Source: a virus
Lineage: Duplodnaviria; Heunggongvirae; Uroviricota; Caudoviricetes
Virus record (IMG/VR): IMGVR_UViG_644736364_000008
Length of the DNA: 64,000 nucleotides
Reading direction: 5' to 3' (one strand)
The notes beneath the pieces were generated by a model. The model ran no database searches and had not been told where the DNA came from. It saw nothing but the letters and a program-made list of their open reading frames with translations. Of the stretch, positions 18,932-64,000 are shown in pieces. The position numbers and the translations under genes were made by a program. The stretch's first letter is position 1, and every line of letters begins with the position of its first letter.

Positions 18932-19564
18932 ATGTTAAACATCAGAATGGGTTCCGATACGGGAGGTAAGGCAGCTATTGAGAGGCTGCTTGAGGCTTAT
19001 GGATTCACAACTAAGCAGGCATTAAGCGAGCACCTGAATGTCTCAAAAAGTACTATGGCAAACAGAGTGTTACGTGACAGTTTTCCTGCTGACTGGATAA
19101 TTCAGTGTGCACTAGAAACCGGTGTTTCGTTACTTTGGTTAGCCACTGGACAGGGAAGCATGAAAGAAGGATACGAGTCTGAGAAAAGATCTCATAACGA
19201 GAACAAACAAGCAATTAAACCGTTATCCAAACTCATAACTCCATCTATTCCTAAAGGAACCTTGGAAAATGGACAACTCAGTATTGATGAAGAGATTTTC
19301 CTAGACCACAGCATATTACCTGCAGATTATGAAGAATCGATGTTCTTAGAAACCCCTACTGATTGTTATCTCATCGATAAATCAGTTAAACAAGTCAGCA
19401 ATGGATTCTGGCTTATCAATATTGATGGAATGATTATTATTGCAAAAATCATGCGGATTCCCGGCAATAAGATTGTAGTAAATCAAGATGAAGCGTCTTT
19501 CGAGTGCTCTGCCGATGATGTGGAAGTTATTGGGCGTGCAGTCAAAGTAATAAAGAGTATCTAA
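18932..19564 (+). CDS. cI: CI immunity repressor
   Basis: 210 aa with N-terminal HTH; divergent from apl and upstream of int as in 186. Confidence 0.8.
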   Translation: MLNIRMGSDTGGKAAIERLLEAYGFTTKQALSEHLNVSKSTMANRVLRDSFPADWIIQCALETGVSLLWLATGQGSMKEGYESEKRSHNENKQAIKPLSKLITPSIPKGTLENGQLSIDEEIFLDHSILPADYEESMFLETPTDCYLIDKSVKQVSNGFWLINIDGMIIIAKIMRIPGNKIVVNQDEASFECSADDVEVIGRAVKVIKSI

Positions 19565-19566
19565 AC

Positions 19567-20586
19567 ATGACTGTCAGAAAACAGCCAAACGGTAAATGGT
19601 TGTGCGAGTGCTATCCCAATGGACGCAATGGCAAGCGCGTGCGTAAGCAATTTGCTACGAAAGGCGAAGCCATTGCTTTTGAAAGCTTCACAATGGAAGA
19701 AGTGAACAAAAAACCATGGCTGGGGGAAAAGGAAGATCGGCGACACCTATCAGAATTAATTGAGCAGTGGTATTCCCTGTATGGTCAAACACTCGCAGAC
19801 CCCAAGCGCCTCATAGCGAAACTTAGAATTATCTGTAATGGTCTAGGCGATCCCATCGCTTCAGAACTGACAGCCGGTGACTTTACGAAATACCGCGAAG
19901 CACGGTTAAAAGGTGAAGTACGAAATGAAGATGGCACGTTTATGTCGCCCGTTAAGCCCCGCACGGTAAACCTTGAACAGCGCAATCTATCATCTGTTTT
20001 TGGTACACTGAAAAAGCTGGGCCACTGGTCAGCCCCCAACCCGCTTGCTGGGCTGCCAACATTTAAAATTGCTGAGAGTGAATTGGCGTTCCTGACCCCG
20101 GAAGAAATTAAACGTCTGCTGGATGCCTGCGCCGATTCTCAAAGCTCCAGCCTGCTTTTGATTGCAAAAATATGCCTGGCCACCGGCGCACGCTGGAGCG
20201 AAGCCGAAAACCTGCAGAGTCATCAGGTATCAAAATACCGTATCACTTATACCAAGACCAAAGGCAAGAAAAACCGAACTGTGCCTATTTCTAAGGATTT
20301 ATATGAAGAACTGCCTAAGAATAGGGGGAAGTTATTCACCCCATGCAGAAAAGCCTTTGAGCGTGCAGTAAAGCGAGCCGGTTTAGAACTACCAGAAGGC
20401 CAATGTACCCATGTTCTGCGCCATACATTTGCCAGTCATTTTATGATGAACGGTGGAAATATACTGGTACTGCGCGATATTCTTGGACATGCCGATATAA
20501 AAATGACGATGATTTACGCTCATTTTTCCCCAGATCATCTTGAAGATGCAGTAACTAAAAACCCATTAGCAACCTTGATGGATTAA
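19567..20586 (+). CDS. int: Tyrosine integrase (P2/186 type)
   Basis: 339 aa; C-terminal RHTFASH...GH...Y catalytic motifs. Confidence 0.9.
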   Translation: MTVRKQPNGKWLCECYPNGRNGKRVRKQFATKGEAIAFESFTMEEVNKKPWLGEKEDRRHLSELIEQWYSLYGQTLADPKRLIAKLRIICNGLGDPIASELTAGDFTKYREARLKGEVRNEDGTFMSPVKPRTVNLEQRNLSSVFGTLKKLGHWSAPNPLAGLPTFKIAESELAFLTPEEIKRLLDACADSQSSSLLLIAKICLATGARWSEAENLQSHQVSKYRITYTKTKGKKNRTVPISKDLYEELPKNRGKLFTPCRKAFERAVKRAGLELPEGQCTHVLRHTFASHFMMNGGNILVLRDILGHADIKMTMIYAHFSPDHLEDAVTKNPLATLMD

Positions 20587-20590
20587 GCAC

Positions 20591-21814
20591 ATGCGCAACA
20601 TTATCGAATTAGAACAGATATCGGAAGAACTAAAAAAACATGAACTATTGCAACCCCCATTCATTGCCGAGGGAAAACTAATTTCTGACTTTTCTAAGAG
20701 AGTCGAGTGCTATTTAGAATTAATTGACTCCATTAGAAATAAATATCCTGACAACGAGATAATTAAACAAGTAAAGATTCGCACAAAATCAATAATATAT
20801 TTATCTGATAAAATAATAGAAACTCTTAAGCTATTTTTAATAGGAAATGTTAAAGAAGCTTATAAAAAATTCGATTTGGCAATTACCAAGTCATCAATGC
20901 ATACTCATCTTTATAAGATGACTGTTCCTCTAACTAAATTATGCAACCCACACACCCCTTTATTTCGCGTAAGGAAAAGTGAGTGCATCCTAAAACAAAG
21001 AGAAGAATTATTTCATATACCATTTAAAAATAGACATTTAGTTAGCGCACAAAGATTTTCTGTATCCGGTCTTCCATGTTTATATCTTGGAACATCAATA
21101 TTTGTATGTTGGCAAGAAATGGGAAAACCTGACTTTGATAAACTTTACATATCTTCCTTCATATCCGATAAAGAAAATTCAAATATAAGAATTTTAGATC
21201 TTGGGTACAATTTAACATCTGCACTTCGTACAAAACCGGGAGATCTTTGGTATTCATTCGAACAAGGTTCAGATGATGATTACGATCTAAATAATGATAA
21301 TTTCATGGATCAAATTAATGATAAAATTTCAAAGTTGATTGCATGGCCTTTAGTCCTTGCATGTAACTATACAAAAGATAATGAAAACGCAAGTTTTAAT
21401 AAAGAATACATAATACCAAACCTATTAATGCAATGGATTAGTAGTGACAGAAACAAAAATATATCAGGGATATCGTATCGATCAACAAAGATATTAAACC
21501 AAAAAGATAGCGATATTGGGATTAATGTAATTATCCCCCCAAAAATAGAAAACATAGTTGAAACCAATGATACCCACTGTCCTGTTTTAAAAAAAATATT
21601 TAGAGTTACAAACCCTGTTTCCTGGACTGTGTTTAGTACACTAGAAGCCACCCCCTATCTATACAAAAATAATTTTAATTTTTCGACCTATAATCCCGCA
21701 AAAGGATGGATTGAAGACTTTGATGAATCCCTTGTTGAACATTATGAAAATACCACTTTTAGAAAAGTTGAACTCCTTATTCATCAAATGATGAAGTATG
21801 AATATTTAAAATAA
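20591..21814 (+). CDS. AT-rich cargo protein (407 aa) with central RES-like domain
   Basis: Strongly AT-rich ORF between int and att; LFRVRKSE...QRFSVSGLPCLYLGTSIFVCWQE resembles the RES (Arg-Glu-Ser) toxin signature. Confidence 0.75.
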   Translation: MRNIIELEQISEELKKHELLQPPFIAEGKLISDFSKRVECYLELIDSIRNKYPDNEIIKQVKIRTKSIIYLSDKIIETLKLFLIGNVKEAYKKFDLAITKSSMHTHLYKMTVPLTKLCNPHTPLFRVRKSECILKQREELFHIPFKNRHLVSAQRFSVSGLPCLYLGTSIFVCWQEMGKPDFDKLYISSFISDKENSNIRILDLGYNLTSALRTKPGDLWYSFEQGSDDDYDLNNDNFMDQINDKISKLIAWPLVLACNYTKDNENASFNKEYIIPNLLMQWISSDRNKNISGISYRSTKILNQKDSDIGINVIIPPKIENIVETNDTHCPVLKKIFRVTNPVSWTVFSTLEATPYLYKNNFNFSTYNPAKGWIEDFDESLVEHYENTTFRKVELLIHQMMKYEYLK

Positions 21815-21930: not shown

Positions 21931-21975
21931 ATGTAGGAATTTCGGACGCGGGTTCAACTCCCGCCAGCTCCACCA
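21931..21975 (+). ncRNA. ssrA: 3'-terminal 45 nt of tmRNA gene ssrA (attachment-site remnant)
   Basis: atgtaggaatttcggacgcgggttcaactcccgccagctccacca matches the enterobacterial ssrA 3' end; upstream sequence is not ssrA. Confidence 0.7.
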
Positions 21976-22103
21976 ATCATGATTGGACGGTGTAAGGACA
22001 ACACCAACAAAAACAGGAAGTTAGAAGTCTCAGCAGGACACCGACCAGACGGTGAGGAGACATAAAAGGATACGCAAAGGAGCCGCGGCTCCGAAGTGAA
22101 ATG

Positions 22104-22360: not shown

Positions 22361-22558
22361 ATGGCACTGGACAGTTATGCATCTCCGAATATTATTCCGG
22401 AGCTAAGACAACCGAATGCCGCAGCAGGTAAGATCACGCTAGGGGGGCTGGACAGAATGGCTGTTACGCCCAGTGTGAAGAAAAGAAGGCTAAGTATGGT
22501 AGAATTTCCATACGCACAGACCTTGTTATCCGACTATACAGCCTGGAAGGCACTATGA
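22361..22558 (+). CDS. Small ORF (65 aa) coupled to the downstream nuclease-like gene
   Basis: Stop overlaps next ATG (ATGA). Confidence 0.3.
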   Translation: MALDSYASPNIIPELRQPNAAAGKITLGGLDRMAVTPSVKKRRLSMVEFPYAQTLLSDYTAWKAL

Positions 22559-23343
22559 CAAATCTACAACTGGAAGAAAGATTTAGGGCGCTTGAGAAAG
22601 ATTACGATGCGCTCATTTCCACAAAATATACTGCGCAGAACGTTCTCACTCACACTATGGAAACCTATGTTGATTCTGGTAAATATAAAAACTGGATCGC
22701 CAGAGTGAAAAAGTTAATAGAGGACAGCTACGGAAAAGAGTCTGATTATTACAATGACTTCAATACTGTAAACAGCAGGTGGTCTTCTAATTACAATACA
22801 CTGATCAAAAGTTATAAACCGTTGTTTGATGCGGCGAGAGATGATCTTGCGCACTCTGCTGTCAGTACTAATACTCCTCAAGAAGGTTCGCCGCTGAGCC
22901 TCGTACTTAATATTCTTAACAGGTTTCCGACCTTTGTTCGCCAGTTAAAGAGGCGGTACAACGGCCGTGCGCCGCTTGAAGTTAATGATGAGTATGACGT
23001 ACAGGATTTGATTTATGCACTGCTGACGCTTCATTTTAATGATATTAGGGCGGAAGAGTATACCCCCAGCTTTGCGGGCGCGGCCTCAAGACAGGACTTT
23101 CTTTTGAAAAAAGAGAAAATTGTGATAGAGGTGAAGAAAACCCGTGAATCTCTGGGAGCGGGTAAAGTTGGTGGAGAGTTGCTTATTGATATGGCGCGCT
23201 ACCGCGCTCACCAAGACTGCGATACGTTGATCTTGTTTGTATATGACCCGGATTGCTACATAAATAATCCTTTGGGCGTGAAAACCGATCTGGAATCTAA
23301 AGACGCGGAAGGAAAAGTGAAGGTTGTTATTGCGCAGTTCTGA
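22555..23343 (+). CDS. PD-(D/E)xK nuclease-like protein (262 aa) with N-terminal coiled-coil region
   Basis: C-terminal EVNDEYDVQDL ... KIVIEVKK pattern fits a D...(D/E)xK restriction-endonuclease-like core. Confidence 0.65.
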   Translation: MTNLQLEERFRALEKDYDALISTKYTAQNVLTHTMETYVDSGKYKNWIARVKKLIEDSYGKESDYYNDFNTVNSRWSSNYNTLIKSYKPLFDAARDDLAHSAVSTNTPQEGSPLSLVLNILNRFPTFVRQLKRRYNGRAPLEVNDEYDVQDLIYALLTLHFNDIRAEEYTPSFAGAASRQDFLLKKEKIVIEVKKTRESLGAGKVGGELLIDMARYRAHQDCDTLILFVYDPDCYINNPLGVKTDLESKDAEGKVKVVIAQF

Positions 23344-23430
23344 CACGCTTAAGTGTCACCTTACAGGATTAGGTTTGCGGCCGTGCCAGCAGGACGAGCA
23401 TGAAAAAGGCCGCTGGCACGGCCGGATTTG

Positions 23431-23724
23431 TCATCTTTGCCAGGTCAAATCAAAATCTACGTGAAAATCCGCAGGCTTAAGCTCGCAACTGCCACCACGC
23501 CCAATTAACGACGTTATGTTTACAACGTTTGAACCTGTTGAGATGGCAAGTTGAGTGTCATCTGTAAACGTGATGATTAGCATTTCAGTCTGATGAACCT
23601 GTACTCCAGTTTTCTGAAAACCAATCTGGACAGATTTCACCGTTTTCCCAACCATTTCACGGGCTTGATTGATAGAGTAATTAGCTTCAACTTGTAGGTC
23701 ATTCCTGAACTTGGGTAGTGTCAT
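23431..23724 (-). CDS. Hypothetical protein (97 aa)
   Basis: ORF downstream of the GIY-YIG gene on the same strand. Confidence 0.45.
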   Translation of the reverse strand: MTLPKFRNDLQVEANYSINQAREMVGKTVKSVQIGFQKTGVQVHQTEMLIITFTDDTQLAISTGSNVVNITSLIGRGGSCELKPADFHVDFDLTWQR

Positions 23725-23934
23725 TTTACATCCTCTTTAGTGAAGTTTTCGCTATTTAAATCAGCAGCATTCCTTTTAAATCACTGGCATGTCAGCAGTG
23801 GATAGTCTGAGTGTAACGTCCAGTGAGGGGAATAAATATTGGTCAGACTTTGCACAAAAGAGCCAACTATCGCGGGCTCTCTCTCATCATGTGCGAAAAT
23901 TGACCACAATATGAAATCCAGTTCCATTCCGAAA

Positions 23935-24759
<825 letters not shown>

Positions 24760-24857
24760 TCAATTGACAACTTATAATCCCTACTAGTTAGCATTATGAT
24801 TTCCAGAGTGAGGAATATAAAAATCTCTGTTTCTGGCACATAACAGCCCTTAAGATC

Positions 24858-24915
24858 GTAGCTCGCCATCATGGGGTGTCGGGGGGCGGAGGTTCAAATC
24901 CTCTCGTGCCGACCA
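24858..24915 (+). tRNA. 3' fragment (about 58 nt) of a tRNA-Pro(GGG)-like gene; 5' acceptor/D-arm absent
   Basis: ggaggttcaaatcctctcgtgccgacca (T-arm, 3' acceptor, CCA) with anticodon-loop-like tcatggggtg; no complementary 5' acceptor strand. Confidence 0.6.
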
Positions 24916-24928
24916 AAAATCCCTTAAG

Positions 24929-24956
24929 AACCAGCCTATTATGGCTGGTTTTTTTA
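24929..24956 (+). terminator. Rho-independent terminator after the tRNA fragment
   Basis: aaccagcc-tatta-tggctggtt followed by TTTTTTT. Confidence 0.6.
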
Positions 24957-25097
24957 TGATTGTTTTTTATGCGGAGAAATACCGGGGAATAATTGGGGTA
25001 AAACACCTTTAGGCTATTCACTTAGCCTACCACCATCAAAATCTTTCCGAATGTATCCATCTCTTTTTTCTTATGCAGCTAAAACGAAGTCTTGATA

Positions 25098-25141
25098 CTG
25101 TTTATTTACACAGATAAGAATAATACTGTCTACAAACGCAG
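25098..25141 (+). promoter_or_regulatory. Two LexA boxes (one exact, one with one mismatch) upstream of a DinI-like remnant
   Basis: ctgtttatttacacag (CTGT-N8-ACAG) and ctgtctacaaacgcag. Confidence 0.5.
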
Positions 25142-25156
25142 TACAAAAGAAGTGTT

Positions 25157-25335
25157 ATGCGTATTGAGATCTCCATAGCCAAAGACAAAATGACCAAATG
25201 CCAAACGGCGCTGTGGACGCGTTAAAGGAAGAATTAACCCAACACATTGGCAAGCGTTATGACGATGTGGAGATGATCGTAAAAGCCACCAGCAACGATA
25301 GTTTTTCAGTTAGACATACTGCAGATAAAGATTGA
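25157..25335 (+). pseudogene. DinI-family gene disrupted by a frameshift
   Basis: Frame 1 gives [14 protein letters not shown] then stops; a second frame starting at 25198 gives [38 protein letters not shown] (DinI-like core). Confidence 0.45.
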
Positions 25336-25759
25336 GCTAAAACTTTCGTTCAGGAAACTCTGAATGATACCTGAGAGTCTACTGAAGAGTTGTTTGTTCA
25401 CTAGTTAGCACGTAGGAAATCATTCAATACTCGCACTATCGGAAGTTCACCAGCCAGTCGTAGCACGTCCTTGCAAACGACGTGCCTACGGTTTCAATCA
25501 CCTCTCACCATCAATTCTATCAATAATAATTAAACAGCGCCTAGACAAAATAAATAACAACAAGTCAACAACCTCGACAGGATGCCGATGGGATGATGAA
25601 GAGATAAGAAAGAATAACCAGTAAAGCCCTAAAACGTCAGCGTTCAGACGCGTTTTTTACTTAATCGGTAACAAATACGTTGTATCATAGCAAAATAAAA
25701 TGATTGTTCTAAATCAGATTAACTCCTCACTTTTGTACAATGTCGCTTACAGGTATACC

Positions 25760-27649
25760 ATGAAATCCGAGACGCTAACTGTCCAACAACTTTTTCAAGA
25801 CCGCCGACAATACTGTGTTCCATTCTATCAACGTGCCTATGTATGGACTCAGCAAGACCAGTGGTCAGCTCTACTGGAGGATATCCTAGAGAAAGTACAA
25901 TCCCGGCTCTCGGGTACAAAACCAACTCCCCATTTCCTTGGTGCGGTTGTACTGGAACCTCAATCAAAAAAAGGATTATTAGGTGTAGATTCCATACATA
26001 TTATTGATGGTCAGCAACGATTGACCACTCTTCAATATGTTCTGGCATCCATCCGATTAGCATTACGTGCTACGGATCTTTCCAGCTTAGAGGCTCTCAT
26101 TTCGCCTTGCCTGAAAAACTCAAACGAAGACACAATGCGAAATAAAGAAGTAGAACGCTTCAAACTGTGGCCAACTTTTCGGGATCAAACTCATTTTATT
26201 CAAAGTTTTAATGTTGAAAATATTGACGATCTCCGGGACGTATTCTCTGATAGTTTCACGCAGCATGGTACGTTGCGTAAGCATTTTAATCACCCGCCAT
26301 CACTAGAAGCATTATGTTTTTTTACTGAAGCCTTTATAAAATGGATTAAAATAGAAAACCACTCACCACAAGAAAATGCTGTAGCTCTAATTGAGGCTGT
26401 CTTAACAGATCTGAAACTGGTAAGCATATTTCTCGAAGCTGAAGATGATGCCCAAATAATTTTTGAAACATTAAATGGGCGAGGGGCGGAACTTCATGCT
26501 ACGGATCTTATTCGCAACTATATCTTTATGTGCGCTGAGCATGAAAATATTAATGCTATTGAATTATATGAAAATGAGTGGAAGAGCTTTGAAGATAAAT
26601 ACTGGTCGGAAAAACAACGCCGTGGACGTATTAATAAACCACGCATGGAGTGGCTAGTACATGCGACATTGCAATCAGAAAGGCAACGTGAAATTGATCT
26701 GTCTCGCCTTTACAATGAGTATCGTGATTATGTAAGTAAGGACTTGTCTTCACAACGAGCAGATCTGCAAGTAAAGCGCCTCAAACAATATGCATCACAA
26801 TATAAAGAATTGGTTGATGGTTTTGGCACAACCCCCATCTCACACTTTGGATATCGCATCGCAGACTATGATGTGACGACACTTTATCCGCTTGCTTTGT
26901 TCATTTCGATAGCTAACATCGCTGATGATGAGAAAGCAGCCATGTATAATGATCTTGTCTCCTACGTAGTACGAAGAGCCGTATGTGGCCTGACGCCAAA
27001 GAATTACAACAATGTATTTATGAATGTATTGCGGCACTTGGCTAAAACGGAAATTTCCAGTGTTGAGTTACGTAATATCCTCAATAACTTAAATGGCGAA
27101 GCCTCACGTTGGCCTGGTGACTCAGAATTTCTCAACGCTTGCATCAATGCTCCACTTTATCCTGGCAGGCTCGACGCACCGAAAATGCGCTCAATGTTAA
27201 CGGAACTTGAAAGAGAACTTTGTCGCCAAGTAAAGACAGAAAAGCCTGATGTTCCAAATCTTTCTAATCTCGATATCGATCATCTTATGCCTCAAAGTTG
27301 GTATTCCTGTTGGCCTCTCGAAAATGGTCGTATGGTGACAAATTCAGATGCTACGGTATTGAACCAAATTGTTCTGTCTGGAACCGATCTTACCCCTGAA
27401 CAGCTACTGGTAAGGAAACGGCAACAAGCGATATCTACTTTGGGAAATCTAACTTTGCTTAACCTTAGCGTAAACCGTTCTGTTCAGAATGCTGTATTTC
27501 TGAAAAAACGTGATGCTCTCATCGTCCACACCAATCTACGACTGAACATTCCACTTATAGTTAAGGATAAATGGGATGAGGATGAAATCCTGGAGCGGGG
27601 TAAAAAGTTGGGGGAAATTGCATTGAAAGTATGGCCAAAACACGATTAA
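25760..27649 (+). CDS. GmrSD-family type IV (modification-dependent) restriction endonuclease-like protein (DUF262 + DUF1524/HNH)
   Basis: N-terminal IIDGQQRLTT motif and C-terminal DIDHLMPQSW...GNLTLLNLSVNRSVQN His-Me finger; alternative ATG at 25700. Confidence 0.8.
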   Translation: MKSETLTVQQLFQDRRQYCVPFYQRAYVWTQQDQWSALLEDILEKVQSRLSGTKPTPHFLGAVVLEPQSKKGLLGVDSIHIIDGQQRLTTLQYVLASIRLALRATDLSSLEALISPCLKNSNEDTMRNKEVERFKLWPTFRDQTHFIQSFNVENIDDLRDVFSDSFTQHGTLRKHFNHPPSLEALCFFTEAFIKWIKIENHSPQENAVALIEAVLTDLKLVSIFLEAEDDAQIIFETLNGRGAELHATDLIRNYIFMCAEHENINAIELYENEWKSFEDKYWSEKQRRGRINKPRMEWLVHATLQSERQREIDLSRLYNEYRDYVSKDLSSQRADLQVKRLKQYASQYKELVDGFGTTPISHFGYRIADYDVTTLYPLALFISIANIADDEKAAMYNDLVSYVVRRAVCGLTPKNYNNVFMNVLRHLAKTEISSVELRNILNNLNGEASRWPGDSEFLNACINAPLYPGRLDAPKMRSMLTELERELCRQVKTEKPDVPNLSNLDIDHLMPQSWYSCWPLENGRMVTNSDATVLNQIVLSGTDLTPEQLLVRKRQQAISTLGNLTLLNLSVNRSVQNAVFLKKRDALIVHTNLRLNIPLIVKDKWDEDEILERGKKLGEIALKVWPKHD

Positions 27650-60698: not shown

Positions 60699-60806
60699 AA
60701 ATCAGCACGTACGAATTCAAACTCTGCCATAAAAGAACATATAAGTAATTTATTAACATATAGATATAGGTTATATTACAAATTGAAAAATTATTGGAGA
60801 GCAACA

Positions 60807-61673
60807 ATGAATCAAAATCCATTCTCATTCTATGACTTTCTTGGATATTTAATACCAGGTGGTTTTTTTATCCTATTAATGTATTTCTGTGGTTTGACAT
60901 TCGATCTAGATATTGTTATTGACTTAAGTGAATTGCTCAGAGGTCAAAGTCAAATCTTTGGCATTTTGAACTACGCTTCAATAGTTATTATATCTTATAT
61001 AGCTGGACATTTTATTTCTATCACGTCAGCATTTTTTATCGAAAAATACATGAATAAAGAATTAGGATATCCTTCCAAATATCTATTTAAAAAATTGATA
61101 GATACCTCAGAAAGCATTTGTAGCCCATCATGCGATGAGAGAAGCGCTGATAAAAAAACAAAAATAAAGAATCGCATAATCAAATGCGTATTATGTCCAA
61201 TAATACTATGGGATTTTATAACACAAAAACTATGTTATTCTCAATCTCTACCATTTCATTTAGCTAATACAACATGGTTAATGATCAAAGAAGGTTATGA
61301 GAAAAAGTTCATAACAAATCGCCAATTATTACAAGATAAAAACGGACTTGATGATGATCTCTTCAGATTGGCATATCATTATGTTTATGAGTTTTCAAAA
61401 CAACATCAAACAAAAATTCAAAACTATGTTGCATTATATGGTTTTTGCAGAAACATATGTTTAATCTTTATAATTTCATTTTGGGTATCAGTTCCAACCT
61501 TTATTTATCGATTATGTACTCATAGTGATTATCTTTATAGTTTACTTTCAATAATGCTTAGCTTTTTCTTCGTCTATGTTTTCTATGTTGGTTTTGTTAA
61601 ATTTTATAGAAGATATACTTTAGAAGTATTAATGGCATTTGCTGTACTTCAAAGTAACGACACTATTCGTTAA
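60807..61673 (+). CDS. AT-rich polytopic membrane protein (288 aa) of unknown function
   Basis: Very AT-rich ORF with several hydrophobic helices; SD ggaga. Confidence 0.6.
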   Translation: MNQNPFSFYDFLGYLIPGGFFILLMYFCGLTFDLDIVIDLSELLRGQSQIFGILNYASIVIISYIAGHFISITSAFFIEKYMNKELGYPSKYLFKKLIDTSESICSPSCDERSADKKTKIKNRIIKCVLCPIILWDFITQKLCYSQSLPFHLANTTWLMIKEGYEKKFITNRQLLQDKNGLDDDLFRLAYHYVYEFSKQHQTKIQNYVALYGFCRNICLIFIISFWVSVPTFIYRLCTHSDYLYSLLSIMLSFFFVYVFYVGFVKFYRRYTLEVLMAFAVLQSNDTIR

Positions 61674-61714: not shown

Positions 61715-61921
61715 ATGCTGAACCTCGATTGTGTTCCTATCTCAACTTATTGCAAAGAAACTGGCGAAACTCCTGAAGCAATAAACAAACGTGTACAGCG
61801 CGGTGTTTGGCGTGAAGGTGTTCAGGTTTTAAAGGTTGAAGGCGTTAAGGAGAGGTGGATTGATCTTAGTGAGGTTGCAAAATGGGCCAGACAAAACTGC
61901 TCAAACTACCGCGCGGCGTAA
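61715..61921 (+). CDS. xis: Excisionase (Xis)
   Basis: Small basic protein (VQRGVWREGVQVLKVEGVKERWIDLSEVAKWARQ) overlapping the int start. Confidence 0.6.
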   Translation: MLNLDCVPISTYCKETGETPEAINKRVQRGVWREGVQVLKVEGVKERWIDLSEVAKWARQNCSNYRAA

Positions 61922-63054
61922 CAATCAGGAAACACCACCAGGGAGAAACGATCAATATAACTTTCACCTACAAAGGAGTTAGATGTCGTGAGCCGCTTTC
62001 CAATCTGGAAGTAACACCAAAGAACATTAAATACGCCGAGCGTACACTCGGCGAAATCCATAATAAGATCGAAAGGGGAACATTCATTTATGCAGAATAT
62101 TTTCCCCGTTCTGCTCGTTTGAAAATTTTTGGTAATGCTGCTGCAAGCAAAACGGTAAAGATGTACCTGGACGAATATCTTGAAATCTGCGAAACAAGAA
62201 AACTTTCACCCTCTACGATTGGTGGCTATAAAAAATGCCGTAGTGCGTTAGCCTCACTTCACATTTGCCCTGCAAGTGAATTAACACCAGCAACCCTGAA
62301 AGCGTGGATTCAAAGCCAGAAAACAACCTTAAAAACCATTCGCAACCAGTTATCTTTCCTACGGTCAGCACTTGATGAAGCCGTGACCGATGGGGTACTT
62401 CAAATTAACCCCGTATCGTTAGTAACAGCTTCGCGCTACCAAAGTGATAAGTCAGAAGCAGAAAGCAGCTATGTGGTTGATCCGCTATCACCAGCAGAAG
62501 TTGATGCATTACTAGCAGCAGCCGGAAACAAACAATGGGAAAATCTGTTCCGGTTCGCCATACATACAGGCCTGCGTAGTTCTGAATTATGTGCCCTACG
62601 ATGGCATGATATCGACTTTGTTGGAAAAACAGCCCATGTTCAGAGCGCAAGTGTTGTCGGAGTTATCAAAGGAACAAAGACAAAAGCCGGTACCCGTAAA
62701 GTTGAACTGACTGAAGAAGCAATGTTGGCGTTGATAAACCAGAAGCCATTTACATTCATGAAGGATGCTACTGTCTTTGAAGATCCAAAGACCAATAAAC
62801 CCTGGGCAAGTGCTGATGCAATTAGGAAAAAAGCATGGGTGCCAACATTGCGAAAAGCAGGTATTCGTTACAGAAACCCATATCAAACCAGGCATACATT
62901 CGCCACCAGCCATATCAGCCGGGGAGCAAACCTGTTTTGGCTTGCGGCTCAAATGGGCCATAAAGGGCCTGAAATGTTATTCAGGCACTATGGACAATAC
63001 TTGAAAGAGTATGATGGGAGGGCAAGTATCAAGGATAAAAAGGCTTTATTTTAA
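61882..63054 (+). CDS. int: Tyrosine integrase (lambda Int family)
   Basis: 390 aa; C-terminal TRHTFATSHI...GH...LFRHY catalytic motifs. Confidence 0.9.
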   Translation: MGQTKLLKLPRGVTIRKHHQGETINITFTYKGVRCREPLSNLEVTPKNIKYAERTLGEIHNKIERGTFIYAEYFPRSARLKIFGNAAASKTVKMYLDEYLEICETRKLSPSTIGGYKKCRSALASLHICPASELTPATLKAWIQSQKTTLKTIRNQLSFLRSALDEAVTDGVLQINPVSLVTASRYQSDKSEAESSYVVDPLSPAEVDALLAAAGNKQWENLFRFAIHTGLRSSELCALRWHDIDFVGKTAHVQSASVVGVIKGTKTKAGTRKVELTEEAMLALINQKPFTFMKDATVFEDPKTNKPWASADAIRKKAWVPTLRKAGIRYRNPYQTRHTFATSHISRGANLFWLAAQMGHKGPEMLFRHYGQYLKEYDGRASIKDKKALF

Positions 63055-63663
63055 GTCATTATGCCAATCGTCTACTGTTTGAAACCAAATTTTTAACCTT
63101 TGCATAAAGGTACGATCCTTTTTGGGAGGGTGGTACCTTTGAAAAGAAGTATGTAACGCTTCGATAACTCCCATACAAGCATCAATTACTTCTTGTGCTT
63201 TAACCGGGCGATCGGCATCTGAAAGCTTGTGAGCGACCTCACAATCCAGAGTTGCTTTCTCTAGTACAGATGAGAACACCTCGTCAGGTATATACAGTCC
63301 TCTGCTTTCCAAAATGCAAATCAGTTTGGAAACTTGTTGAGCTTTAGCCAAGATAGTTAACAAGTATGAAACAGAAGCCTTTGTTCTATCCTTTTGCAAC
63401 CTTAACAATCGATGCTTTGATGCTCTAATTTTAGGTTGAGTTGTCTGACTGAGCCAATAGTTAGAAGAAATATCAGAAATTTCAATAACTAACTTTGAAA
63501 TAGCATCAATAATTGATTTCGATTCAGAACGTGTCGCCAGTTTTACAGAATTATTGTACGCAACTCGCCATCCAATGAAAACTAAGCAGACGCTAACTAC
63601 TGTGATACACCACGAATACTGTCCTATTTGTGCTACTAATGACATTGGTTCCGTACTGATCAA
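63046..63663 (-). CDS. Membrane-anchored protein of unknown function (205 aa)
   Basis: N-terminal TM helix; convergent with and overlapping the int 3' end; AT-rich. Confidence 0.55.
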   Translation of the reverse strand: MISTEPMSLVAQIGQYSWCITVVSVCLVFIGWRVAYNNSVKLATRSESKSIIDAISKLVIEISDISSNYWLSQTTQPKIRASKHRLLRLQKDRTKASVSYLLTILAKAQQVSKLICILESRGLYIPDEVFSSVLEKATLDCEVAHKLSDADRPVKAQEVIDACMGVIEALHTSFQRYHPPKKDRTFMQRLKIWFQTVDDWHNDLK

Positions 63664-63673
63664 CTATCGCCTC

Positions 63674-64000
63674 TTATACTCTTTCTGGTTGTGCTAAATC
63701 AATAAATTTATCAATCTGTTCTTTGTAGAACGGAACATCACTTTTTATAATCAAACGTGCTTTAACGTTGGCTTTAGGTATCCCTTCCTTACGGATGAGA
63801 CCTCCAAACGCCTCTTCTAAGAAAGAGGAACCAACACCCAGTGCTATACCGCGAAAATCAACCACAATCTCCTGTTCAGTACCCTTCAGCGCAGGCACCA
63901 AAAACTCTCTACGAAATCTTTCCGCACTGTGTGGGCTATCCGTTGTGTAACGTCCGAAAGGTGTTCTGGAGAACTCCTTCGCTATGACGATATTTCTCAT
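63674..64000 (-). CDS. STAS-like (DUF4325-like) small protein; start at or beyond the window edge
   Basis: EIVVDFRGIALGVGSSFLEEAFGGL resembles the STAS-like fold signature; ATG at 64000 is the last codon in the window. Confidence 0.45.
   Translation of the reverse strand: MRNIVIAKEFSRTPFGRYTTDSPHSAERFRREFLVPALKGTEQEIVVDFRGIALGVGSSFLEEAFGGLIRKEGIPKANVKARLIIKSDVPFYKEQIDKFIDLAQPERV

Follow-up and report, generated by a model that had tools for sequence, protein, structure and literature searches.

A prophage-carried kinase-STAS-membrane protein cassette proposed to combine a VapKSC-type phosphorylation switch with a new membrane effector family

Introduction

What is encoded by the genes that converge on the integrase gene of a Caudoviricetes prophage, at the right-hand end of IMG/VR virus record IMGVR_UViG_644736364_000008? 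The window, that is the whole stretch of DNA that was analysed, is 64,000 nucleotides long. From its letters only, an original prediction had seen there a pair of genes, for a small STAS-like protein and a membrane-anchored protein, and had likened them to a defence or toxin module that it could not name. Here, we report that the module consists of three genes, which we call K, S and E, and that K, encoding a kinase, lies just beyond the window. K-S-E, a prophage cassette, is real, conserved and unannotated. It fits best among the kinase-STAS switches of the VapKSC type, as a version with a novel membrane effector family, and is not a categorically new principle.

VapKSC was described by Chambers, Rani, Min, Villa & Corbett (EMBO J 2026; PMC13373217). 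The vapKSC operon encodes VapK, a STAS-GHKL kinase, VapS, a small STAS antitoxin with phospho-site S48, and VapC, a PIN toxin. VapK activated by single-stranded DNA (ssDNA) phosphorylates the DUF4325 antitoxin VapS, which frees the PIN toxin. The C-terminal helix of VapS reaches the active site of the toxin and is required for inhibition, and the operon gives about 2-log protection against phage Bas42 (PMC13373217). The same study concerns CapK, made of a helix-turn-helix (HTH), a STAS and a GHKL domain, and CapS, a repressor in which a STAS domain is followed by a winged HTH (wHTH). ssDNA activates CapK, CapS becomes phosphorylated on Ser54, and CapK-CapS pairs regulate CBASS, Bub and Thoeris operons. 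The aromatic residue of the kinase that binds ssDNA is F54 in VapK and W68 in CapK (PMC13373217).

Gene content of the cassette

As originally predicted, two minus-strand open reading frames (ORFs) end the window and converge with int. Extending the sequence rightwards in identical genomes located the start of S, a 303-amino-acid K and, further out, attR with its repeat of the ssrA 3′ end, so that the supposed gene pair proved to be part of a three-gene operon. Positions beyond the window edge were extrapolated from the identical locus of Escherichia coli UTI89 (L001), the window position being the L001 position + 50999. The features are as follows.

61882 to 63054, plus strand: int, tyrosine integrase (Pfam Arm-DNA-bind_2 and Phage_integrase), convergent with E
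63046 to 63663, minus strand: E gene, 205 amino acids from a TTG start, single-pass membrane protein with a helical body
63670 to 63673, minus strand: Shine-Dalgarno sequence GAGG for E, read from the sequence
63674 to 64000, minus strand: S gene, complete 108-amino-acid STAS-like protein of the DUF4325 family (Pfam PF14213)
64005 to 64916 (extrapolated from UTI89 L001), minus strand: K gene, 303 amino acids, STAS domain and GHKL Ser kinase
about 64949 to 64977 (extrapolated from UTI89 L001), minus strand: promoter-like site

The three genes are co-oriented, with gaps of 4 nt between K and S and 10 nt between S and E, and the whole cassette spans 1.9 kb. In a promoter and terminator scan, the signal was not above the expectation from shuffled sequences.

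The ATG start codon of S is base 64000, the final base of the window, and in the identical E. coli genomes the TGA of K, the preceding gene, lies 4 nt upstream of it. S is therefore complete within the window; it is the operon that continues, and not the 108-residue protein, which had been thought possibly longer. Its predicted STAS-like character was confirmed by a match to Pfam DUF4325 ('STAS-like') with an E-value of 6.2e-14 (51.9 bits for a cutoff of 23). The domain covers residues 25-87 and leaves about 21 residues after it. Among 21 diverse homologues, the columns P14, R17, F29, R30, S58, S59, F60, E63, G66 and G67 are invariant, including the Ser58-Ser59-Phe60 (SSF) triplet, and the motif quoted in the original prediction corresponds to the invariant GSSFLEE..GG core of the family. 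No DNA-binding domain was found in S by the Pfam scan or in the homologue alignment. Therefore, S must work via protein-protein contacts. By analogy, S is proposed to be a phospho-switch or antitoxin, and the likely sensor is K rather than the small STAS protein to which this role had been given. As a side observation, S matches positions 341-439 of the 441-position profile phrog_5816, which suggests that in some phage proteins DUF4325 is joined to a large N-terminal part, perhaps as a fusion of K with S.

The Pfam match of K to HATPase_c_2 is sub-threshold (E 9e-5). However, the Bergerat-fold motifs are invariant in 54 K homologues, namely the N-box (E155, N159 and H163-A164), the G1 box (D201-x-G-x-G) and the G2 box (R242-G243-x-G245). 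These intact motifs identify K as a GHKL Ser kinase, resembling SpoIIAB and RsbW, with a fused STAS domain. The K model opens with the STAS domain at residue 2 and has no HTH. A nearly invariant tyrosine, Y13, is found near the region of VapK F54 and is at most a possible equivalent of that residue. Distant K homologues (L021-L026 and AS1_41 of Marinobacter phage AS1) carry a Lys/Arg-rich N-terminal extension of 60-80 residues that E. coli K lacks; it could be a nucleic-acid-binding appendage.

The RefSeq start of E is an ATG at 63645, giving 199 residues. The 205-residue form is backed by homologues having an ATG at the position of the TTG, and it is with this TTG start that the predicted 10-bp gap to S holds. 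The GAGG directly follows the TAA stop of S (63674-63676) and stands 6 nt upstream of the TTG, a tight spacing that suggests translational coupling. At its other end, E overlaps int, the two stops sharing 9 bp (63046-63054). In agreement with a single-pass membrane partner, E has one hydrophobic helix, N-terminal, at about residues 17-35. The remainder is helical in the AlphaFold 2 model (pLDDT 79) and is predicted to be cytoplasmic according to the positive-inside rule, R33, K41, R45 and K49 following the helix.

The E family counts 151 representatives in 1.84 billion proteins, all of 65-290 residues and without fused domains. Family-wide, conservation concerns the transmembrane (TM) helix, the juxtamembrane motif G-W…K-x-A-x-R-x-E and, after it, (Y)W. 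TLDCE and HPP motifs are shared by close E homologues and absent in distant ones, which favours a structural or membrane function over an enzymatic one. E had no match in Pfam, PADLOC, NCBIfam or the PDB sequences. In a Pfam search with 29 E homologues, only a sub-threshold DUF2247 match appeared in 10 of them (best E 0.002), which we took as noise. No PIN domain was found, the protein being all-helical with an N-terminal TM helix instead. A PDB search with E gave only a marginal match to Utp20. With Foldseek against BFVD, a single weak match was obtained (E 5e-3), to an unnamed phage protein of 159 residues; this length equals that of the E protein of phage AS1 (AS1_39), to which it may correspond. 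The SLATT family, suggested in the original prediction, was rejected, since E has one hydrophobic helix as compared to the two TM helices of SLATT and no SLATT match was found at E ≤ 1 among 29 members. E is thus a proposed membrane effector of an uncharacterised family.

Some E genes are disrupted. In E. coli FDAARGOS_1303 (L073, NZ_CP070045.1), an IS3-family element between S and E uncouples E from the operon; elsewhere, E is frameshifted (L023) or N-terminally truncated (L028). These anecdotal cases may reflect the occasional inactivation of a costly gene.

Conservation and distribution of the cassette

Is the association of the three genes fortuitous? The region is found with 100% identity in 124 complete E. 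coli chromosomes, among them those of UTI89, APEC O1, IHE3034 and the type strain ATCC 11775. Overall, 139 of 5426 complete E. coli genomes contain the cassette, always on the chromosome and in single copy; 128 of them have a version at least 99% identical and the other 11 a variant of about 68% identity. The cassette is therefore an accessory element. Carriers are prophages of extraintestinal pathogenic (ExPEC) and avian pathogenic (APEC) E. coli, of Salmonella, of Klebsiella and of marine Gammaproteobacteria.

K homologues formed 163 clusters and were traced into Salmonella, Rheinheimera, Photobacterium, 15 GTDB genomes and 40 IMG/VR contigs. Hidden Markov models (HMMs) were then built from the K, S and E families, and 64 loci with enough sequence were counted. 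S directly follows K in 64/64. E follows S in 59 loci according to the first E HMM; a broadened model, trained without the outliers, recovered three more (62/64) with no false positives among 4163 ORFs. In the two remaining loci, the slot of E is occupied by a protein of 153-160 residues with an N-terminal TM helix. Reverse searches from distant E representatives again recovered K and S. Hence, the pair is conserved together elsewhere, in the same gene order at all 64 loci, and the integrase-adjacent genes are conserved mobile cargo with an E-type gene in third position. The order K→S→E is constant at every locus examined, in Enterobacterales, Vibrionales, Alteromonadales, the 40 IMG/VR viral contigs and Marinobacter phage AS1.

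Phage AS1 is an isolated temperate phage. Its triad (AS1_41/40/39), found by tblastn with S, is located immediately downstream of a cI-like HTH gene and divergent from cro. At another locus (L069), the triad is flanked by the lysis cassette on one side and by the terminase genes on the other, and in the viral contigs it is often at the contig end. In Rheinheimera, where it adjoins NERD genes, and in Photobacterium, the cassette also occurs outside prophages. A trio made of a 293-amino-acid protein, a DUF4325 protein and a TM protein has been described near the integrase of Francisella phage KIRK (PMC7924643). Among GenBank phages, neither tblastn with K nor megablast of the region gave any match.

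Relationship to VapKSC and a proposed mechanism

K-S-E resembles VapKSC in several respects. Both consist of three co-oriented genes in the order kinase, STAS protein, third gene, and both are found in mobile or defence contexts. Like K, VapK has STAS and GHKL domains and no HTH, the lengths being 302 and 303 residues. S and VapS are DUF4325 proteins of about 110 residues (VapS matches PF14213 with E 2.7e-17) whose helix 2 opens with an invariant serine. With sequences taken from the supplementary files of PMC13373217, hhalign aligned the K profile to VapK with E 9.6e-5, over 236 columns across both domains, and a profile of 21 S sequences to VapS with E 2.7e-4, placing S58 on VapS S48. The third gene makes the difference: VapC is a PIN nuclease, whereas E is helical, has a single membrane pass and belongs to a family without annotation. 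Because E is not a PIN nuclease, K-S-E is not a strict member of vapKSC. A membrane-effector variant is not mentioned in the main text of PMC13373217. Literature searches on DUF4325, on STAS with defence and on the RefSeq accessions returned nothing on the cassette beyond that paper and incidental mentions, such as the coupling of PIN.4 to DUF4325.

By analogy with VapKSC, we favour, with a confidence just short of even, the reading that K-S-E is a prophage-carried, phosphorylation-gated module of toxin-antitoxin type, acting in abortive infection or defence and built on a VapKSC-type sensor-switch pair. In the unperturbed lysogen, S would bind the cytoplasmic helical domain of E and keep it inert. 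A cue from infection or damage, possibly ssDNA as for CapK and VapK, would activate K. K would then phosphorylate S at the invariant Ser58 or Ser59, and phosphorylated S would release E. Free E would self-associate in the inner membrane and compromise it, so that the cell would be arrested before the invading phage completes its cycle. The toxin- or defence-like character suggested at the outset thus gains support from the homology in design with VapKSC, from which we infer the defence function itself. More tentatively, at odds somewhat below even, K-S-E would be an undescribed, prophage-spread abortive-infection system in which the kinase-STAS phospho-switch, common to VapKSC and this cassette, sets free membrane toxins of a new single-pass family.

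The strict succession of K, S and an E-type gene counts in favour of the module as proposed, as do its mobile cargo positions, the known defence genes facing it across attP (see below) and its accessory, single-copy status in E. coli. Several observations weigh against it. K, S and E all lack matches in PADLOC-DB v2.0.0 at E ≤ 1-10, and E is devoid of any recognisable toxic fold. K and S are only distantly similar to VapK and VapS (hhalign E ~1e-4), so that the mechanism is carried over by analogy. VapK F54, which contacts ssDNA, falls in a gap of K in the hhalign alignment. The tail of S after DUF4325 has about 21 residues as compared to about 39 in VapS, whose tail is needed for inhibition. 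Finally, a DNA-damage trigger would fire a prophage-borne copy at the SOS induction of its own prophage, which is awkward for a pure defence function. The cue of K-S-E may differ from ssDNA, and this would avoid such self-firing.

The likeness to CapK-CapS raises another question: are K and S transcriptional regulators merely controlling the expression of E? The common features are a GHKL Ser kinase with an internal STAS domain, a STAS partner with a conserved Ser in a (D/G)SSF motif, and a PFG motif near the N-terminus of both S and CapS. CapK-CapS pairs lie upstream of the operons that they regulate, as K and S lie upstream of E, and K shows a weak similarity to CapK (hhalign E 1e-3), less than to VapK. 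However, the alignment of S with CapS is not significant (E 0.18; it puts S59 on CapS S54). Moreover, S has 108 residues, all STAS, and lacks the C-terminal wHTH of CapS, while K starts directly with its STAS domain and lacks the N-terminal HTH of CapK. On this domain content, the reading of S as a CapS-type repressor was rejected and the CapKS regulator model does not fit. CapK-CapS pairs control a multi-gene immune operon, whereas none is found downstream of K-S, S is not expected to bind DNA, and the 10-nt gap between S and E leaves no room for a regulated promoter. We regard transcriptional control of E by K and S as largely excluded and very improbable.

SpoIIAB and RsbW, the closest structural relatives of K, each keep a partner sequestered until an unphosphorylated STAS antagonist displaces them. 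The three genes might be wired differently. E could be a membrane sensor or anchor, responding to phage DNA entry or envelope stress, with K as the partner that is sequestered or released; alternatively, K would be the effector and S its pseudo-substrate regulator. As an effector, K would phosphorylate host or phage proteins; in the release variant, it would be freed as RsbW is by RsbV. Such a wiring would suit a protein like E, without recognisable toxic domain and most conserved in its TM helix and juxtamembrane segment. On the other hand, in the only relative that has been characterised, the toxin is the product of the third gene and the S counterpart inhibits it. Moreover, K brings a STAS domain of its own but lacks an additional output domain, and the cassette encodes neither a sigma factor nor a PP2C phosphatase nor any other target. 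The first two were not found beside the cassette either, in any context examined. SpoIIAB-SpoIIAA and RsbW-RsbV have both; conversely, they lack the STAS domain fused to the kinase, the carriage by prophages and the membrane protein of K-S-E. We consider a rewired circuit of this kind rather unlikely.

Other searches with K, S and E brought little. NCBIfam gave nothing useful and PHROGs only families of unknown function. In PDB sequence and profile searches, RsbS (E 1.5) and RsbW (E 0.31) were marginal and the VapS and CapS entries 9Z7O and 9Z71-73 were not retrieved. S59 aligns with the phospho-Ser of RsbS in an alignment that is not significant. A functional analogy can be drawn with lambda RexAB, which is also prophage-encoded and expressed in the lysogen, as the AS1 triad downstream of a cI-like gene would be. 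In both systems, a cytoplasmic sensor is combined with a membrane protein thought to collapse the membrane potential. They differ in that there is no sequence or fold similarity, that RexB has four TM helices and that RexAB has no kinase or STAS switch.

If the VapKSC-type mechanism is confirmed, the kinase-STAS switch first described in 2026 would extend from a PIN nuclease to a second, unrelated and unannotated membrane effector family. The idea of K-S as a modular sensor of infection or damage would gain support, the pair being a portable trigger attached to unrelated effectors, whether nuclease or membrane protein. Since it is carried by prophages of ExPEC and APEC E. coli, Salmonella and Klebsiella, the cassette could shape phage susceptibility in clinically relevant lineages. 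Its small size (1.9 kb) and its presence in a well-studied strain make the model directly testable.

Prophage setting

The att sites and the genes next to them are the following.

21931 to 22010, plus strand: attL side, a 46-nt ssrA 3′ fragment and shared downstream bases
about 65069 to 65134 (extrapolated; L001 14070-14135): attR side, ssrA 3′ end repeated some 150 bp past K
22555 to 23343, plus strand: protein with a DpnII/MboI-type restriction endonuclease domain (PADLOC Aga_Helical-REase-like; PADLOC and Pfam)
23935 to 24741, minus strand: PD-T4-3 (GIY-YIG; PADLOC E 9e-137)
25700 to 27649, plus strand: GmrSD type IV restriction enzyme (PADLOC and Pfam)

The attR copy beyond K matches positions 21931-22010. 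The cassette is therefore inside a prophage of about 43 kb, between int and attR. The same int-E-S-K layout is found at Salmonella and E. coli loci (L003-L006), and in Salmonella too the interval from int to attR holds the cassette. ARAGORN and Rfam detected no intact tmRNA in the window because only the 46-nt ssrA 3′ fragment (21931-21976) remains. The direct repeat is about 70-80 bp long and extends past the CCA end of ssrA; compared with attL, 5 nt (CTCCA) are missing from the attR copy and two positions differ. The repeat thus exceeds a simple core, which would fit integrations at ssrA in tandem or in series. From the att positions, we infer that in the excised circular phage the defence genes of 22555-27649 would be about 0.8-4 kb from K, across attP.

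This setting bears on a further explanation, in which the cassette would serve the prophage itself. It would be either an addiction or stabilisation toxin-antitoxin system, or a membrane factor timed by DNA damage and active while its own prophage is being induced, either holin-like or lysis-timing, or serving superinfection exclusion at the membrane. The cassette is indeed almost always prophage-borne, and DNA damage, the signal to which its relatives CapK and VapK respond, also induces prophages. The L069 copy directly follows the lysis cassette and the AS1 copy belongs to the immunity operon; however, these positions are also classical slots of morons or defence genes. The copies of Rheinheimera and Photobacterium found outside prophages, the three known defence genes that the cassette here adjoins across attP, and the lysis genes that the carrier prophages possess of their own all argue against this explanation. 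Overall, we judge this explanation unlikely, though not negligible, and retain the VapKSC-type defence module as the preferred one.

Other features of the window

The left side of the window (1-21930) is not collinear with UTI89 and matches E. coli MS7163, which has a P2/186-like prophage in tandem at ssrA, with CI at 18932-19564 and int at 19567-20586. In the variable region of this P2-like prophage, a 469-amino-acid protein (11127-12536, minus strand) corresponds to PD-T7-1 (PADLOC E 1e-196), a known defence gene, here in a P2 hotspot. A further int-att cargo slot, bounded by the P2-like integrase and the att fragment, is occupied by an ORF for 407 residues (20591-21814, plus strand); without Pfam or PADLOC match, it is a second cargo gene that lacks an explanation. 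Finally, between yfdR and xis/int, a very AT-rich ORF (27-30% GC) at 60783-61673 (plus strand) encodes a multi-TM protein of 296 residues. No Pfam family matches this protein and PADLOC relates it weakly (E 1.4e-5) to Csx27, an accessory membrane protein of CRISPR type VI-B; the gene may be another moron.

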